Shown piece after piece: positions 6,956 through 14,762 of a stretch of 41,791 bases of DNA. Source of the stretch: Anaerolineae bacterium (GTDB taxonomy: Bacteria > Chloroflexota > Anaerolineae > S140-20); contig JALUTT010000076.1 in assembly GCA_027021705.1 (NCBI GenBank), positions 1-41,791 on the forward strand, given 5' to 3'. A program made the translations under genes and the position numbers. Position 1 is the stretch's first letter. Every line of letters starts with the position of its first letter. Below the pieces are notes generated by a model. That model was given only the letters and a program-made list of their open reading frames with translations, was not told the origin of the DNA and ran no database searches.

Positions 6956-7077
6956 GCTGAATTCCAGAGACGCACAGGAACGCGCTGGCAAACGTCGAGG
7001 AAGGCAAGGTTGACGGTTGTTGAAAGACACCTGCGGGAGTCCCTGGAGGCTCTCAGAAGGTGTGGGAGGGATGAACG

Positions 7078-9570
7078 GTGGCTAACAATCTGGAACGGTT
7101 CACACAGCGGGCAAGACGGGTCCTGACCCTGGCCCAGGAGGAGGCAGAGCGACTTCGACACAGCTACATCGGGACCGAGCACCTTCTGTTGGGCTTGATC
7201 CGAGAGGAGAGCGGCGTCGCCGGCCGCGTACTGCGGAAGCTGGGGCTCGACGTCCGCCGGGTCCAGCAGATGGTGGAACGGATGACAGGGACAGGTCGTC
7301 GCACTCCCTTTGGCCGGATGGACCTGACGCCACGCACCAAGCGGGTGATCGAGCTGGCCGTGGATGAGGCCCGTCGAATGGGCCATCACTACATCGGCAC
7401 CGAGCACCTGCTGTTGGGCCTGGTCCGCCAGGGCGATGGCGTGGCCATTGACATCCTGCGTCAACTGGGAATCAGCCCTGAACAGGTTCGCCGGGAGACC
7501 CAACGGGCCATCCAGCAGAGTCCCGTCTACGCCGAACAGACCCGGCGCAAGAAACAGGTCAAGACCCCGCTGGTGGACCAACTGGCCACAGACCTGACGG
7601 CGCTGGCCGCCGAGGGGAAGCTGGACCCGGTCATCGGTCGGCAGACGGAGATCGAACGGGTGATCCAGATCCTCTCCCGCCGGACGAAGAACAACCCGGT
7701 GCTCATCGGCGAGCCGGGTGTGGGGAAGACGGCCATCGTCGAGGGGCTGGCCCAGCGCATCGTCGAGGGCCAGGTGCCAGAACCCCTGCTGGACAAACGG
7801 GTACTCCAGCTCGACGTGGGCTCTCTGGTCGCAGGCACGATGTACCGAGGGCAGTTCGAGGAACGCCTGAAGAAGGTGATCGAGGAACTGAAGTCGAGCG
7901 AGAGCATTCTCTTCATTGACGAGGTCCACATGCTGGTCGGCGCAGGGGCTGCTGGCAGTTCGGTGGACGCGGCCAACATCCTGAAGCCGGCCCTGGCCCG
8001 GGGCGAACTGCAGTGCATCGGCGCGACGACACTGGATGAGTACCGCCGCTACATCGAATCGGACGCGGCTCTGGAGCGCCGCTTCCAGCCCATCCTCGTG
8101 GAGGAGCCCAGCATCGAGGACACCATCGAGATCCTCCAGGGGATCAAGAAGCCCTACGAGGAGCACCACCGGCTGCGCATCTCCGACGAGGCCATCTACG
8201 CCGCCGCCCACCTCTCGGCCCGCTACGTGCCCGACCGCTACCTGCCCGACAAGGCGATAGACCTGATAGACGAGACCGCCTCGCGGGTGCGGATGTACAA
8301 GCTTCCCCAGGCCCAGGGGCTGCAGCAGACCTTCAGCGACCTGAAGCGCATCCAGCGAGAGCGCCAGCTCGCTATGGAAGAGGCCCGCTACGAGGACGCC
8401 GCCGACCTGCGGGAGCGGGAGCGGGAGCTCCAGGAGAAGATCGAGCAGCTCCGTATGGGCTGGAACGACCTCTCCTCGGCCCCCGAGGTCACCGCTGAGG
8501 ACATCGCCGAAGTCGTCTCGATGTGGACGGGCATCCCGGTGATGCGCATTGCCGCCGAGGAGTCGGAACGGCTCCTCCACATGGAAGAGGCGCTGAGGGC
8601 CCGCATCGTGGGCCAGGATGAGGCAATCACGGCCATCGCCAAGGCCGTCCGTCGCGCCCGGGCCGGGCTAAAGGACCCCCGACGCCCCATCGGCTCCTTC
8701 ATCTTCCTGGGGCCCACCGGCGTGGGCAAGACGGAGCTGACCAAGGCGCTGGCCGAGTTCATGTTCGGCAGCGAGGAGGCTCTCATCCAACTGGATATGA
8801 GCGAGTTCATGGAGCGGCACACGGTCGCCCGGCTGGTCGGTGCCCCGCCCGGCTACATCGGCTACGAGGACGCCGGACAGCTCACCGAGGCGATCCGCCG
8901 CCGCCCCTACTCCATCGTCGTCTTCGACGAGATCGAGAAGGCCCACCCCGAGGTCTTCAACATGCTCCTCCAAATCATGGAAGAAGGTCATCTCTCCGAT
9001 GCCCGGGGGCGAAAGGTGGACTTCCGCAACACCATCATCATTATGACCTCCAACGTGGGGGCGGAGATGATCAAGCGGAGCACCAGCCTGGGCTTCGTCG
9101 TCCAGCGGGATGAGGAGCGGGAGGCCGAGGACGCCTACCAGGAGATGCGGGAGAAGCTGCTGAGCCAGCTCAAGCGGGTCTTCCGCCCGGAGTTCCTCAA
9201 CCGCCTGGATGGGGTGATCGTCTTCCGCGCCCTGGGTAAGGAGGAGATCAAGCGGATCGTGGACCTGGAGCTGGGGAAGGTGAGGGAACGGCTCCAGGAG
9301 CACCAGGTGGAGATGGAAGTTACAGAGGCGGCCAAGGAACTGCTGGCCCGTGAGGGCTACGATCCCGACTACGGAGCCCGACCGCTGCGCCGGGTGATCC
9401 AGAACAGAGTGGAAGATGCCCTCTCCGACGCCCTGCTGGCCGGCCGCTTCCACGAGGGGGACACTATCATCGTGGATGCCGTGGACGACGAGATCGTCCT
9501 CCGGGGCGAGACCATCCCAGAGGGAGAACCCGACCGGCCTGAAGCGATGGAAGCCCCGATGGCGGCCTGA
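7078..9570 (+). CDS. clpC: ATP-dependent Clp protease ATP-binding subunit ClpC
   Basis: Two Clp-N repeats, Walker A motifs GEPGVGKT and GPTGVGKT, short UVR/M domain, LGF ClpP-docking loop, [15 protein letters not shown]. Confidence 0.95.
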
Positions 9571-9614
9571 TCCGGTAGGTGGGAGCAGGCCGAAACCTGC
9601 GAGACGAGTTGAAG

Positions 9615-9654
9615 AGACCAGCCGGTCACCTGACCCGGGGACCGGCTGGTTTGT
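9615..9654 (+). terminator. Intrinsic terminator-like hairpin after clpC
   Basis: accagccggtc (9617-9627) pairs with gaccggctggt (9640-9650), followed by ttgt. Confidence 0.6.
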
Positions 9655-9675
9655 GTGAAGACTGGAGGGCTATCA

Positions 9676-11304
9676 ATGCGCTTCTCCCAGCTCTTTGGAC
9701 ACACCCTGCGTGAGGCCCCGGCCGAGGCTCGGTCGGCGAGCTACCGGCTGGCCCTGCGGGCCGGCCTCCTCCGTCCGCTGGCCCCCGGCCTCTACGCCTA
9801 CCTTCCCTTGGGGTGGCGCGTGGTACGCCACCTGGAGGACCGGCTGCGCGAGACGGTGGAGGCGCTGGGCTTCCAAGAGGTCCACCTCCCCTGCTCGGGA
9901 GCGAAGGCCGACGAGAGCCCTACAGCCCCTTCGTTGCCCGCCCTGGTCGCGCTGGCCCGCCGGGAGGTCCGCTCCTACCGAGACCTCCCCCGCGCCCTCT
10001 ACCAGGTCCGCCCCCACCTCCAGGCCCAGGCCCGGCCTGGAGAGGGGTTGCTCCGCCCTCGGGAGGCTCTGCGCTGGGAGGGTTGGAGCCTGCACGCCAC
10101 GGAGGCCGACCTGGACGCCCTCTACGCCCGGCTTCTGGAAGCCCTCCAGCAGCGCCTCCAGCGGTGGGAGTTGGACCCCCTCGTGGCCGAGGGAGATGAA
10201 GGTCACGCCCTCCTGCTCCCCCACCCCGATGGGGGGACCGGCTTCATCGGTTGCCCTGCCTGCGGCTACCGGGCCCTGAGCCATCACGCCCGCCTGGACA
10301 AGGGGGCAGGGATTTCCCAGGAAGCGTTGCAGCCGGTGCGGAAGGTGGCGACCCCCGACTGCCCCACCATCGCCGCCGTCGCCGACTACCTGGGCGTCCC
10401 CACCCGCCAAACTCTGAAGGCGGTCTTCTACGCCGACGCCGAGACGGGGGATCTGGTCTTCGTCGTCATCCGGGGCGATCTGGAGGTGGACGAGGTGAAG
10501 CTGCACCGCGCCTTGGGAGGGCGGTCCCTCCGCCCGGCCCAGCCCGAGGAGGTTGCGCAGGCCGGCGCGGCCCCCGGCTACGCCTCGCCGGTCGGGCTGC
10601 CCGTTCGCCCCTCCCTGGAGGCCAGCGAGGGCATCATCGTCGTCGCCGACGACTCCATCACCCAGGGCAGCAACTTCGTCGCCGGGGCCAACGAGGCTGG
10701 CTACCACCTGACCGGCGTCAACTACCCCCGCGACTTCTCCGTCACCCTGCTGACGGAGATCGCCTTGGTGCAGGAAGGGCACCCCTGTCCCCGCTGTGGC
10801 CGGTCCATGGAGGAAGGGCAGGGCATCCTCCTGGGCGAAGCCCGGCGGCTGGGAAGCCATCCCGGCGGGGCGGCAGAAGCCACCTACCTGGATGCCGACG
10901 GTCGGGAGCGGCCCATCCTGATGGGCCACTACCACCTGGTGGTCAGCGCCCTGATGGCGGCGCTCCTCGAGGCGCACCACGACGATCTGGGCGTCCGCTG
11001 GCCCCCTGACGTGGCCCCCTACCAGGTCCACCTGATCGGGCTGGGGCCGAAGGAGGAGGTGCTGGCCCGGGCGGAACAGCTCTACGAGCGGCTGCGGGCG
11101 GCGGGCTACACCGTCCTCTACGACGACCGGGATGAGCGGGCCGGCGTCAAGTTCGCCGACGCGGACCTGATCGGCTGCCCCATCCGACTGACGGTGAGCC
11201 GGCGGAGCCTCCAGGCCGGCGGCGTCGAGGTGAAGCGCCGCCACGCCGACGAGCGGGAGGTCATCCCCTTCGACACCGTGGAGACCTTTCTGAGGGGCCT
11301 ATAA
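9676..11304 (+). CDS. Prolyl-tRNA synthetase-like protein with degenerate catalytic motifs and intact INS editing and anticodon-binding domains
   Basis: ProRS N-terminus MRFSQLFGHTLREAP, SYRDLP, INS domain (TLKAV, GYASPVG), anticodon domain (YDDRDERAGVKFADADLIG). The PTHEE, FRDE and GIGxxR motifs are absent. Confidence 0.85.
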   Translation: MRFSQLFGHTLREAPAEARSASYRLALRAGLLRPLAPGLYAYLPLGWRVVRHLEDRLRETVEALGFQEVHLPCSGAKADESPTAPSLPALVALARREVRSYRDLPRALYQVRPHLQAQARPGEGLLRPREALRWEGWSLHATEADLDALYARLLEALQQRLQRWELDPLVAEGDEGHALLLPHPDGGTGFIGCPACGYRALSHHARLDKGAGISQEALQPVRKVATPDCPTIAAVADYLGVPTRQTLKAVFYADAETGDLVFVVIRGDLEVDEVKLHRALGGRSLRPAQPEEVAQAGAAPGYASPVGLPVRPSLEASEGIIVVADDSITQGSNFVAGANEAGYHLTGVNYPRDFSVTLLTEIALVQEGHPCPRCGRSMEEGQGILLGEARRLGSHPGGAAEATYLDADGRERPILMGHYHLVVSALMAALLEAHHDDLGVRWPPDVAPYQVHLIGLGPKEEVLARAEQLYERLRAAGYTVLYDDRDERAGVKFADADLIGCPIRLTVSRRSLQAGGVEVKRRHADEREVIPFDTVETFLRGL

Positions 11305-11324
11305 AGAAGGGGGAAGGGCTACCC

Positions 11325-12881
11325 GTGACAGCTCTCCTCAACCGAAGAACTCTCATCGGGATCGTTGGGCTGGCTTTCCTCCTGCGCGCCCTCTCCCTGG
11401 ACGCCCAGAGCATGTGGCGCGACGAGGTAGATGCCCTCCGCTTCGCCCTGACCTTCTGGGAGCGCCTGCAGGCCGCCCGGCAGCCCCTCCAGCTCTGGGC
11501 CGAGGTCAAGGCGCTCCTCACCCAACCCGGCTGGAACGGCCCCCTCTTCTTCCTGTTGCTCCGCCCCTGGATCGGCCTGGTCGGCTCCCGGGCCTACGCG
11601 CTCCGCTTCTTCTCCCTGCTCTTTGGCGTCCTGATGGTCCCCCTGAGCGCGATGCTGGGCCGCCGCCTCCTCGACCGCACCACCGGGCTCCTGGCCGCCC
11701 TCTTCGTCGCCACCTCTCCCTACCTGGTCTGGTACAGCCAGGAACTGAAGATGTACAGCCTGGTCCCCTTCCTGGCGCTGCTGGCCCTCTACGCCCTCCA
11801 CCGAGCTGTCACCGAAGGGGGAAAGAGGTGGTGGGGCCTCGTCATCGTGACCACCACCCTGGCCTTCTACACCCACATCCTGGCCGCCCTCCTCATCCCT
11901 CTGGAAGGGGTGCTCTTCCTGCTCTGGTGGCCCTGCTCCCGTGCCCGCTGGCGAGGGGGCCTGATCGCCCTGCTCAGCCTGACCCTGCCCTACCTGCCCT
12001 TGCTGCGCTGGCAACTCCCCCTCGTCCTGCAGCCGGGGGAGACCGGTTTCACCCGCTACTCCCTGGAGGCGATGGCTTCCATCCTGCTCCAGTACTGGTC
12101 GCTGGGCTTTATGGGCGGTGGCTGGCCCTGGGCCGCGTTTCTCGCCCTGGCCCTGGCGCTGATCGGGCTGACCTGGCGAGCAGCGGCCTCTCCCAGCCCG
12201 GCCTTCCGGCCTGCGAGGGCCGGCGGTCTCTGCCCGTTGTCGCCCTGGCGGCGGACCCTGGCCCTGGCCCTCTGGCCTCTCCTCCCCCTCCTCACCCTCT
12301 GGGCCATCTCCCTGCGCCGGCCCCTCTTCACCGACCGTTACCTGGCCTGGACGGCGGCCGCCTTCTACCTGCTGATGGCCGCCGGGCTCACCCGACTGGC
12401 TCGGCGCTGGCGCATCCCCGCCCTCCTGCTTCTGGCCCTCCTGCTCCTTCTGAACATCCAGTCCCTCTGGACCCAGGCGGTCACCCCGTTCAAGGCGGAC
12501 TTCCGGGGGGCAGCGGCCTACCTGAAGGCCCGCTACCGGCCCGGCGAGCCCATCCTCTTCCACCTCAGCTACATGCGCTACAACTTCGACTACTACTGGT
12601 GCGATGAGCGCTGGCCCTGCACCCCAGAACCCGCCTATCCGGCGGCCGGCGCTCCCGCCCCAGGCCCCTGGATGAGCCCCCAGGAGGTGGATCGGCAGAT
12701 GCGAGCCCTCCTCCAGGGCCATACCACCTTCTGGCTGGTGGCCTCCGAGACGGAGATGTGGGACCCCCGTGGGCTGGTCTGGGACTGGCTGGAGCGCCAC
12801 GCCGAGGAGGTAGAGCGGCGGGATTTCACCCGCGTCATCGTCGTCCACTACCGGCTCTTGCCGGTCGGCGGGCCGGGGTAG
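11325..12881 (+). CDS. GT-C fold (PMT_2/GT39-like) membrane glycosyltransferase
   Basis: QSMWRDE, PLFFLLL, ALRFFSLLFG, SPYLVWYSQELKMYSL, YTH, DRYL; multi-TM; GTG start. Confidence 0.82.
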   Translation: MTALLNRRTLIGIVGLAFLLRALSLDAQSMWRDEVDALRFALTFWERLQAARQPLQLWAEVKALLTQPGWNGPLFFLLLRPWIGLVGSRAYALRFFSLLFGVLMVPLSAMLGRRLLDRTTGLLAALFVATSPYLVWYSQELKMYSLVPFLALLALYALHRAVTEGGKRWWGLVIVTTTLAFYTHILAALLIPLEGVLFLLWWPCSRARWRGGLIALLSLTLPYLPLLRWQLPLVLQPGETGFTRYSLEAMASILLQYWSLGFMGGGWPWAAFLALALALIGLTWRAAASPSPAFRPARAGGLCPLSPWRRTLALALWPLLPLLTLWAISLRRPLFTDRYLAWTAAAFYLLMAAGLTRLARRWRIPALLLLALLLLLNIQSLWTQAVTPFKADFRGAAAYLKARYRPGEPILFHLSYMRYNFDYYWCDERWPCTPEPAYPAAGAPAPGPWMSPQEVDRQMRALLQGHTTFWLVASETEMWDPRGLVWDWLERHAEEVERRDFTRVIVVHYRLLPVGGPG

Positions 12882-12892
12882 GAGTTCCGGGT

Positions 12893-13064
12893 CCTCCCGC
12901 AGGCCTCGCGAGCCTTTCCCTCCCGCAGGCCCTGCGATGACCAACGACCAAGACGGCGGGTAAAGGCTGCCTCCATCGCACTTCAGGCCGGGAAGGGGCC
13001 TGCGGGAGGGCCCCTCGAGGCTGCCTCCATCGCACTTCAAGCCGAGAGGGGGCCTGCGGGAGGG
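12893..13064. repeat. Cluster of REP-like CCTCCCGCAGGCC repeats, including a 47-bp direct repeat with 54-bp period
   Basis: Two forward cores (about 12893 and 12918) and two reverse cores inside the near-identical units at 12964-13010 and 13018-13064. Lies between convergent genes. Confidence 0.8.
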
Positions 13065-13091: not shown

Positions 13092-14762
13092 CTACCGCCA
13101 GGCCCGGGTGAGGGCGACCTGGGCTTCGTAGTCACGGAGCTGACGGGCCTTCTCCGCCTCATCCCAGCCCAGCAGGGCGGCCATCCGGTCGGCGACCTGA
13201 GGAGCCACCGCCAGCCCGCCGTCTCGATCTTCGTAGATGACGTGGGTGCGGCGGATGAGGAAGTCGCTCAGCGTCTGGGCCATCTCGTGCTTGACGGCGT
13301 AGGGGATCTCGGCCAGCAGGTAGGGACGGTGGGGGAGCAGAGGCTGCCCCAAGGCGGGGTTCTCCTCGACGTAGGCCAGGATGCGGGCAGCCTCGGGGCC
13401 GTAGGTGCGGGTGAGGTGGCGCAGGCTCTTTTCGGGGACGGGGACGTCCACCGGGCGGAAGGCGGTCAGCACCGGCCAGTTCAGGGGCGAGCGGATGGGC
13501 GTCCCATCCAGCCGCAGGCGGGCCGTCATGCAAGGGTGGGCGGCCTGGATGCCGAACTGCTCGTCCAGCAGCCGGGCCGCCCGGTCCACCAACTCCTCGG
13601 CCATCAGGCGGTGGGTGGTCAGCTTCCCGCCGGCGATGGTGAGCAGGCCGGGGGCCGTCTCCTCGATGTGGTGCTCGCGGGAGATGGCGTAGGTGCTGGC
13701 CGCCTCCTGGGCGATGAGGGGCCGCAGTCCGGCGTAGGTGCTGACGATGTCCGCCTCGCTCAGCCGGGCCGTGGGAAAGGCCCGATGGGCGGCCTCCAGC
13801 AGGTAGGCCACGTCCCAGGCGTCGGCGGCCACCGCCTCGGGGTCCCCGGAGTAGTCGGTGTCCGTCGTCCCCAGGATGGCGAACTCCCCCCAGGGGATGA
13901 GGAAGAGATGCCGCCCATCGCGGGGGGAGTCAAAGACGATGGCGTGCTGGGTGGGCACCCGCTCCCAGGGGACGATGAGGTGTGCCCCCTTGGTCGGGCG
14001 GAGCATCGCCGGAGGGTTGTCGCTCATCCGGCGGATGGCGTCCGCCCAGGGACCGGCTGCGTTGACCACCAGCCGGGCCTGGACCTCGATCTCCTGCCCG
14101 GTCCGGGCGTCCCGCACGACCGCCCCGACGACGCGCAGGCCGGAGCGGAGGAGGGCAATGACCGGGGCGTGGTTGACGACGACGGCGCCGGCGTAGTGGG
14201 CAGCCTTGGCCGTCAGCAGGGTGAGCCGGGCATCGTCCACAGCAGCGTCGTAGTAGCGGACCGCCCCCTTCAGCCCCCGGCGGGCCAGGAAAGGCTCTCG
14301 GCGGGCGACCCGATGGGCCCCCAGCGTCCGGTGGCGCTGGACGTTGCGGAAGAGCCCCAGGATGTCGTAGAGCCAGAGGCCGAGGGCCAGCTTCAGGAGG
14401 CCGGTGCCGGTGCCGTAGACGGGGTAGAGGAAGGGGAGGGGGGAGATCAGCCGGGGAGCGATCCGACGCAGGCGATAGCGCTCGGTGCTGGCCTCGTAGA
14501 CCAGGCCGAACCGGTAGAACTCCAGGTAGCGCACGCCCCCATGGATCAGGCGCGAGGAACGGCTGCTCGTCCCGCTGGCGAAGTCCGCCTTTTCCACCAG
14601 AGCGGTGCGGAAGCCTCGCAGGGCGGCGTCCCGGGCGATGGCCGTTCCGGTGATGCCGCCCCCGATGACCAGCAGGTCGAAGGTCTCGTGATGCAGTCGT
14701 TCCAGGTTTTCTTGGCGGGCGATGTGGGAGAAGGGACGGGTATCGGCAAAAGGTCCCGTCAT
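13092..14762 (-). CDS. glpD: FAD-dependent glycerol-3-phosphate dehydrogenase/oxidase
   Basis: IGGGITG, DFASGTSSRSSRLIHGGVRYLE, VDDARL, GTTDT, AGLRPL, GGKLTT. Confidence 0.9.
   Translation of the reverse strand: MTGPFADTRPFSHIARQENLERLHHETFDLLVIGGGITGTAIARDAALRGFRTALVEKADFASGTSSRSSRLIHGGVRYLEFYRFGLVYEASTERYRLRRIAPRLISPLPFLYPVYGTGTGLLKLALGLWLYDILGLFRNVQRHRTLGAHRVARREPFLARRGLKGAVRYYDAAVDDARLTLLTAKAAHYAGAVVVNHAPVIALLRSGLRVVGAVVRDARTGQEIEVQARLVVNAAGPWADAIRRMSDNPPAMLRPTKGAHLIVPWERVPTQHAIVFDSPRDGRHLFLIPWGEFAILGTTDTDYSGDPEAVAADAWDVAYLLEAAHRAFPTARLSEADIVSTYAGLRPLIAQEAASTYAISREHHIEETAPGLLTIAGGKLTTHRLMAEELVDRAARLLDEQFGIQAAHPCMTARLRLDGTPIRSPLNWPVLTAFRPVDVPVPEKSLRHLTRTYGPEAARILAYVEENPALGQPLLPHRPYLLAEIPYAVKHEMAQTLSDFLIRRTHVIYEDRDGGLAVAPQVADRMAALLGWDEAEKARQLRDYEAQVALTRAWR

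Follow-up and report, generated by a model that had tools for sequence, protein, structure and literature searches.

The INS editing domain is found in cis in bacterial-type (P-type) prolyl-tRNA synthetases (ProRSs) such as those of Enterococcus faecalis (2J3L), Staphylococcus aureus (5ZNJ) and Escherichia coli (ProS), and in free-standing relatives such as ProXp-ala and YbaK. These proteins differ in how they choose their tRNA. On its own, the INS domain of E. coli ProRS does not discriminate among tRNAs, its specificity coming from recognition of G35/G36 by the anticodon-binding domain and not from the acceptor stem; ProXp-ala, which serves ProRS enzymes without INS, reads G72/A73 of the acceptor stem; and YbaK depends on ProRS for its specificity (PMC3973320). 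In this study we describe a P-type ProRS homologue encoded at positions 9676-11304 (forward strand) of a 41,791-nucleotide stretch of DNA, the window, which is contig JALUTT010000076.1 of the Anaerolineae bacterium assembly GCA_027021705.1. The best explanation of its sequence is that the product has lost amino-acid activation and tRNA charging. We consider it probable that this pseudo-synthetase is a stand-alone, anticodon-directed trans-editing deacylase of Ala-tRNAPro that is kept by selection.

The proposed activity, and a signature of Lys, His and GXXXP, are shared with ProXp-ala (bioRxiv 10.1101/2020.09.11.293571). ProXp-ala, however, is a single domain of about 160-200 aa that reads G72/A73 (PMC3973320), whereas the protein described here has 542 aa with a remnant of the synthetase core and carries an anticodon domain, by which it should select tRNAPro through G35/G36 as the cis INS does. 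With the cis-editing P-type enzymes it has in common the domain order, predicted fold, editing signature and anticodon domain, and it differs from them by deletion of the proline-binding segment and destruction of motifs 2 and 3.

A crenarchaeal threonyl-tRNA synthetase paralogue, ThrRS-ed, also retains an anticodon domain. The closest precedent is the pairing of this paralogue with ThrRS-cat, in which a protein without a catalytic site corrects, in trans, the mischarging by a paralogue that is purely catalytic (PMC3592468, PMC9976931); it concerns another synthetase, an unrelated editing fold and archaea. In Anabaena one of the duplicated ThrRSs, T1 and T2, likewise proofreads in trans for the other (PMC4787780), but both are active there and editing takes place within heterodimers, whereas here one copy is catalytically dead. 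HisZ is a retained paralogue of a class IIa synthetase (HisRS) that has lost aminoacylation (PMC5388404, PMC7373986); it regulates a biosynthetic enzyme of which it is a subunit and does not act on tRNA, while in the present protein the tRNA-handling parts are conserved. Finally, ProRSx of Streptomyces and Kitasatospora is a divergent bacterial-type isoform that stands beside a housekeeping ProRS; unlike the present gene, whose active site is destroyed, it is active and encoded next to a non-canonical tRNAProX (PMC10404621). Bacillus thuringiensis has both ProRS types, both of them active (PMC11229370). In passages of PMC5388404 and PMC7373986 the only paralogues traced to ProRS are YbaK, ProX and ProXp, and no description of a full-length catalytically dead ProRS was found in the literature searched. 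Trans-editing pseudo-synthetases are a known kind, of which the dead full-length ProRS version is apparently undescribed in print.

The frame at 9676-11304 runs uninterrupted through 542 codons and a stop. Its openness is weak evidence since the DNA has a G+C content of 66-70% and the antisense strand is also open, with a 523-aa open reading frame (ORF) at 9673-11244. The coding strand is instead set by homology to E. faecalis ProRS 2j3l (expectation value (E) 1.4e-85), which extends over the full length in the P-type order core-INS-core-anticodon domain. The N-terminus, MRxSQLFG, is common to the product and its homologues.

To place the protein among its relatives we use a census of 61 genomes, comprising the window's own (G000) and 60 of the same class, which are kin, so that counts are not independent. 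P-type copies are called dead when the class II core profile PF00587 is absent or under its gathering score of 29.3 bits, intermediate at 40-62 bits and intact at 75.6-128.4 bits, and a conserved column is one that is at least 90% conserved in the 30 intact enzymes. By this definition the window's protein is dead, scoring 15.1 bits (E 0.024) against PF00587. It barely passes one NCBIfam profile, TIGR00409 (307.9 vs a cut-off of 306.7), and falls below another, NF006625 (400.6 vs 558). The whole ORF and the altered parts of its core are as follows.

9676-11304, forward strand: the whole ORF, a dead P-type ProRS paralogue, from the ORF list, Pfam and NCBIfam profiles and homology to 2j3l.
9676-10290, forward strand: degenerate N-terminal part of the class II core (aa 1-205), which keeps 46/83 conserved columns.
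9892-9945, forward strand: a short stand-in, CSGAKADESPTAPSLPAL (aa 73-90), for the WxxSGR...THEE proline-binding segment; 24 aa shorter, with the lowest model confidence in the protein.
9994-10068, forward strand: motif 2 remnant (aa 107-131), with the FRDE Arg/Asp and the REF Phe replaced (Q116, A117, A131).
10822-10845, forward strand: GILLGEAR (aa 383-390) replacing GIE(V/L)GHxF, from the alignment.
10921-10950, forward strand: motif 3 remnant MGHYHLVVSA (aa 416-425), with the Gly residues and the Arg replaced.

In the proline-loop region residues 74-90 align to chain residues 74-114 of 2j3l; the region holds 23 residues vs 47 in intact relatives, and THEE is absent. Motif 2 reads RPHLQAQARPGEGLLRPREA instead of fRDExRPRxGllRxREF, and three of its columns that are invariant in the 30 intact enzymes are altered (R to Q116, D to A117 and F to A131). 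Motif 3 has GHYHLVVSA vs the consensus GxYGIGxxR, with A425 at the position of the Arg. With its proline-binding segment deleted and motifs 2 and 3 destroyed, the protein would be unable to activate proline and, for that reason, would have to work on tRNA charged by another enzyme.

We find it hardly credible that the protein still works as a synthetase, for proline or for some other substrate, by means of an unusual active site, although ProRSx shows that a divergent isoform can be active. The narrow pass of TIGR00409 speaks for such an enzyme, but the motif 2 Arg/Asp, the adenine-stacking Phe, the motif 3 Gly residues and Arg and the THEE segment are all lost and PF00587 is under its cut-off. 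No tRNA gene was found in the 41.8-kb window, whereas ProRSx adjoins tRNAProX (PMC10404621). Given this and the destroyed active site, an identification of the gene as ProRSx was rejected.

In contrast to the core, the parts that handle tRNA editing and recognition look intact:

10351-10719, forward strand: INS editing domain (aa 226-348), PF04073 (tRNA_edit) at 89.4 bits vs a cut-off of 25.5, with 32/33 conserved columns kept.
10417-10419, forward strand: K248, the conserved editing Lys (TLKAV), equivalent by motif position to E. coli K279.
10576-10590, forward strand: the GXXXP loop G301-Y-A-S-P305 (GYASP), an INS-family signature, from the alignment.
10705-10707, forward strand: H344 in GANEAGYH, the conserved gatekeeper His of INS and ProXp-ala, from the alignment.
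10252-10263, forward strand: first CxxC, C193/C196, present in all 16 dead and in 29-30 of the 30 intact relatives.
10786-10797, forward strand: second CxxC, C371/C374, invariant.
11023-11295, forward strand: anticodon-binding domain (aa 450-540), PF03129 (HGTP_anticodon) at 70.5 bits, with 24/24 conserved columns kept.

K248, G301-P305, H344, C193/C196 and C371/C374 are invariant over 60 aligned dead and intact homologues, except that C196, Y302 and P305 are conserved at 90% or above. Both CxxC pairs sit at core/INS junctions, in nearly all intact and all dead P-type ProRSs of the class, an arrangement that suggests a structural zinc site. An AlphaFold2 model from the 60-row alignment has a mean predicted local distance difference test score (pLDDT) of 92.8 and a predicted template modeling (TM) score of 0.87, with dips in confidence at residues 71-90 (the replaced loop) and 111-130 (the motif 2 loop). 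Its best PDB match by Foldseek is E. faecalis ProRS 2j3l_A (E 1e-58, TM 0.83). As modeled, then, the catalytic core persists as a fold and not as an active site.

These results bear out a first-pass annotation of the window, made from the sequence alone, that had proposed a catalytically dead ProRS paralogue. The 542-codon frame with in-frame changes and no internal stop is as it had been described, and its readings of motif 2, GILLGEAR and MGHYHLVVSA all hold in the alignment to 2j3l and relatives. It had put the replacement of the proline-binding segment at about 20 aa shorter, for which we measure 24, and it had called INS, the two CxxC motifs and the anticodon domain intact, in agreement with the profile scores and the conservation of key residues given above.

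The same annotation had proposed looking for a second proS without INS, and the genome does encode one, so the dead gene is not its only proS. The genome is a metagenome bin of 5.19 Mb in 183 contigs, 94.9% complete with 4.5% contamination, in which the window is contig C76 (further contigs are numbered likewise). An intact archaeal/eukaryote-type (E-type) ProRS lies at C176:4257-5669, with TIGR00408 at 587.8 bits vs a cut-off of 437 and with ProRS-C_1, tRNA-synt_2b (67 bits) and HGTP_anticodon domains; the PF04073 editing domain is absent from it in the Pfam scan. Both C76 and C176 are typical of the bin in G+C content and tetranucleotide use. The combination known from ThrRS-cat and ThrRS-ed, a dead editing paralogue together with an editing-less synthetase in the same genome, is thus present here, and all dead-P-type genomes of the census have an E-type ProRS (16/16).

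Only two PF04073 domains occur genome-wide, the INS of the dead proS and a 162-aa YbaK-like protein on C93. The latter (G000 C93:26019-26369; L063:1465-1950, minus strand) is the only free-standing INS-family protein of the genome. Its best solved relative is Thermus thermophilus TTHA1699, a 'putative trans-editing enzyme' (E 5e-26), with APE2540 and YbaK next in rank, and it scores 65.5 bits with YbaK_EbsC, under the cut-off of that equivalog model. It probably clears Cys-tRNAPro. The tRNAPro genes with anticodons GGG, CGG and UGG are of the ordinary bacterial type with a C1-G72/A73 end. ARAGORN called a fourth tRNA-Pro(GGG), of 71 nt, at C71:4086-4156. Its acceptor end does not resemble those of the other three, and the call may be spurious or represent an unusual tRNA.

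Based on this gene content we propose the following division of labor. The editing-less E-type ProRS would charge tRNAPro and occasionally yield Ala-tRNAPro. The dead P-type protein would bind the tRNA through its intact anticodon-binding domain reading G35/G36, and its INS domain would hydrolyze the alanyl ester while the conserved His spares Pro-tRNAPro; the core remnant would be only a scaffold that sets the geometry of the INS and anticodon domains, and the separate YbaK-like protein would clear Cys-tRNAPro. We infer the deacylase activity, its Ala specificity and its action in trans from the conserved signature residues and the gene content. In E. coli ProRS the K279A mutant is editing-deficient and H369 prevents deacylation of Pro-tRNAPro (bioRxiv 10.1101/2020.09.11.293571). 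The dependence of INS editing on the anticodon domain, and not on the acceptor stem, would account for retention of the anticodon domain alongside loss of the motif 2 loop. Because the residues needed for editing and the anticodon domain are kept and the acceptor-reading motif 2 loop is lost, an anticodon-directed Ala-tRNAPro deacylase is the best-supported reading.

Changes in a few pocket residues can shift the specificity of INS-family domains (L266/H369 in E. coli; bioRxiv 10.1101/2020.09.11.293571), and one column that is invariant in intact INS domains is changed in most dead copies. The protein could be a trans-editor that clears tRNAPro not of Ala but of another residue, be it Ser, Thr, Cys or an amino acid foreign to proteins. 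We regard this as quite unlikely, since 32/33 conserved INS columns, the gatekeeper His included, match the intact cis-editing enzymes and a separate YbaK-like protein is present for Cys.

Selection on the dead gene was judged from the conserved columns, with retention averaged over the 16 dead copies:

N-terminal core: 83 columns, dead mean 0.43, this protein 46/83.
C-terminal core: 38 columns, dead mean 0.55, this protein 26/38.
INS: 33 columns, dead mean 0.89, this protein 32/33.
Anticodon domain: 24 columns, dead mean 0.93, this protein 24/24.

Mean pairwise identity among dead copies is 0.31 in the N-terminal core, 0.51 in INS, 0.37 in the C-terminal core and 0.45 in the anticodon domain; among intact copies the corresponding values are 0.62, 0.55, 0.60 and 0.52. 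In the sole same-genus dead pair, G014/G060, the proportion of nonsynonymous differences (pN) is 0.171 vs 0.709 for synonymous ones (pS). The nonsynonymous distance (dN) of this pair is lowest in INS (0.082), followed by the C-terminal core (0.185), the anticodon domain (0.194) and the N-terminal core (0.276), with the synonymous distance (dS) saturated so that ratios are rough. In two of three intact same-genus pairs dN is lowest in the N-terminal core (0.015-0.021), while G004/G052, the remaining pair, has a smaller value in INS (0.029) than in the N-terminal core (0.050). A Nei-Gojobori (NG86) comparison of G000 with G018 (pS 0.53, 55% amino acid identity) is uninformative under the strong G+C bias.

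Closer to the window's gene, INS sites differ at 3.3% between the close orthologue P0003 and this protein while core sites differ at 8.8% and 17.8%. Contigs of metagenome runs X3, X4, X5 and X7 were also compared, and in the near-identical contigs (98-99% alike) of two runs 9/11 of the ORF variants listed are synonymous. The dead motifs recur in P0002 (97% identical) and P0003 (90%), so these close orthologues are not intact, as they would be under one of the refutations that the first-pass annotation had named. Its proposal of a selected pseudo-synthetase gains support from the contrast between INS and anticodon columns (0.89/0.93) and core columns (0.43/0.55), and from the low dN of INS in G014/G060. 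Taken together, the sequence comparisons indicate that the dead P-type gene is under selection, with much stronger conservation of its INS and anticodon domains than of its catalytic core.

It follows from the G+C content, at which long chance ORFs such as the 523-aa antisense frame are common, that a decaying pseudogene could still be open by chance, and the locus is in no RNA run listed among the sequencing runs searched. Such a pseudogene is nevertheless very improbable. No internal stop occurs in any of 53 matched stretches of related genomes, key INS and anticodon-domain columns are 89-93% kept in 16 dead copies from different families, and pN is far under pS in the dead pair. Moreover, the same dead state is met at 97%, 90% and about 54% identity, and a Shine-Dalgarno-like site precedes the ATG:

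9664-9668, forward strand: GGAGG, a Shine-Dalgarno-like site 7 nt 5' of the ATG, read from the sequence.

The nearest named homologues are from Anaerolineae or Chloroflexota. In the census a P-type homologue was found in 52/61 genomes and an E-type ProRS in 46/61. The Pfam scan covered 51 P-type proteins, with the G002 copy (partial, with a masked run) omitted, and all 51 keep tRNA_edit (61-104 bits) and HGTP_anticodon (38-85 bits). Sorted by the state of the core, they are distributed as follows:

Dead P-type: 16 genomes, 16 with an E-type match and 0 without.
Intermediate P-type: 5 genomes, 4 with an E-type match and 1 (G033) without.
Intact P-type: 30 genomes, 19 with an E-type match and 11 without.

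Hence, where no E-type was found, the P-type gene is intact in 11 of the 12 scanned cases, G033 being the exception. Nine genomes have no P-type match, of which seven have an E-type; neither ProRS type was found in G003 (64% complete) or G032 (93%). The same-family relatives with a P-type match, G001 and G002, are both without an E-type match; the P-type of G001 is intact and the visible part of that of G002 reads as intact. Four genomes (G006, G014, G047 and G060) have no PF04073 domain other than that of the dead ProRS. Among metagenome loci about 10/80 are dead by motif, and the five checked by Pfam are without PF00587 and with the other two domains. A scan of metagenome contigs had its closest match at 52% identity, records near this genome being possibly excluded. 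A 494-aa frame of G026 with a C-terminal PF04073 domain was considered as a further dead ProRS and rejected because an anticodon domain is missing from it.

The P-type and E-type genes adjoin in three relatives (G021 C814:7989-11306, G028 C30:7462-10527 and G042 C427:2981-7407). Their P-type copies pass PF00587, and two show early erosion, with AIKVGH in G021 and GVTLGK and GHYSIAISRL in G028.

This adjacency, together with features of the dead copies themselves, would also suit a non-catalytic partner or regulator, a subunit or scaffold bound to tRNAPro, to the E-type ProRS or to the YbaK-like protein rather than a free enzyme. Models for it would be HisZ with HisG, or T1, which provides T2 with editing in the Anabaena heterodimers. 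The dead copies retain the fold and some surface positions away from the active site (T10, R12 and R28 in 16/16; S100, P105 and P72 in 81-94%), as well as both CxxC pairs (16/16). Precedent exists in the trans-oligomerizing duplicated ThrRSs (PMC4787780) and in the need of YbaK for ProRS (PMC3973320). We think this role unlikely all the same, because the editing Lys, GXXXP and His are invariant and a mere scaffold would not need them; in addition, P-type and E-type ProRS architectures differ, and in the window's genome the two genes are on different contigs.

The origin of the dead copies was addressed with two trees, both from quick searches. In the whole-length tree the 16 dead copies lie on one side of a branch with a Shimodaira-Hasegawa-like approximate likelihood ratio test (SH-aLRT) value of 89 and with long-branch warnings. 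In a tree from the 235 INS and anticodon-domain columns they scatter, 8 changes being needed, at least 2 of which are forced by well-supported branches, and the rows nearest to this protein are intact enzymes, its own family's included. An approximately unbiased (AU) test on these columns rejects the dead copies as one group (log-likelihood difference 140.8, p 4.5e-5). The single origin suggested by the whole-length tree was therefore rejected, and we read the loss of charging as recurrent and convergent, including repeated shortening of the proline loop. Five intermediate forms within the intact clade fit such repeated, convergent loss.

Several observations weigh against a selected Ala-tRNAPro trans-editor. 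An Asn in RGDLEVNE (aa 272, 10489-10491) that is invariant in the 30 intact enzymes is present in 12% of dead copies and is Asp in this protein, so that something in INS could have changed. Aa 272 is the sole INS position that changes with the loss of charging, and it may contact the aminoacylation site. The two ProRS genes lie on separate contigs of a bin whose fragmentation (183 contigs, 94.9% complete) and contamination (4.5%) are given above, and the lack of the locus from the listed RNA runs also counts here. P0002 differs from this protein at 15 residues while the run X3 contigs show about 57 base differences over 9033-12674, from which the whole-gene dN/dS may be only moderately low. 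In the census, 19 genomes keep an apparently intact P-type alongside an E-type, so the presence of an E-type alone does not force decay. G033 has an eroded P-type without an E-type match in a genome that is 88% complete in 940 contigs; it may reflect a gap in the assembly or be a genuine exception. Its copy (C199:2110-3654; L020) scores 40.5 bits with PF00587 and has a 19-residue loop, a motif 2 that is cut short and a changed motif 3.

With regard to its surroundings, the dead proS is not seen in a proline/hydroxyproline cluster, and its three neighbors are ordinary genes:

7078-9570, forward strand: a ClpC-type AAA+ chaperone.
11325-12881, forward strand: a PMT_2 family membrane glycosyltransferase, which starts 20 nt past the dead proS stop.
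13092-14762, reverse strand: a GlpD-like flavin adenine dinucleotide (FAD) oxidoreductase.

The stretch that separates the clpC stop (9570) from the dead proS start contains a perfect 10-bp inverted repeat with arms at 9618-9627 and 9640-9649 and a 12-nt loop, followed by TTTGTGTG. The whole element (9618-9657) looks like an intrinsic terminator for clpC; a consensus terminator scan missed it, probably through its 8-nt loop limit. DNA near-identical to window positions 7000-13000 (contigs 98-99% alike) was found in runs labeled hydrothermal vent metagenome, which belong to a different study from the possible source, and a more distant relative of this region in a run labeled hot springs metagenome.

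Beyond this gene, it is possible, and we raise it as a tentative idea, that dead P-type ProRSs form a widespread, unrecognized class of trans-editors, made repeatedly and independently whenever an editing-less E-type took over charging. Each such event would have led to the same end state, in which the proline loop is deleted, motifs 2 and 3 are erased and the INS and anticodon domains are frozen. Its members would be the sole known INS-family trans-editors that choose their tRNA by the anticodon, and they may dock on the E-type enzyme as a two-gene ProRS holoenzyme.

Since the one NCBIfam cut-off (TIGR00409) is just passed, pipelines can name such a gene proline--tRNA ligase, with the consequence that genomes seem to have two ProRSs when only one is able to charge. 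If the proposed function is true, the dead P-type protein would add a third mode of tRNA selection for INS-family domains, beside the acceptor-stem reading of ProXp-ala and the ProRS-dependent YbaK, and would be a bacterial ProRS counterpart of the archaeal ThrRS-ed. A class that arose widely and repeatedly would further give a stepwise view of a cis-editing synthetase becoming a free editing factor, and its repeated independent origin would amount to a natural experiment in how duplicated synthetases share charging and proofreading.

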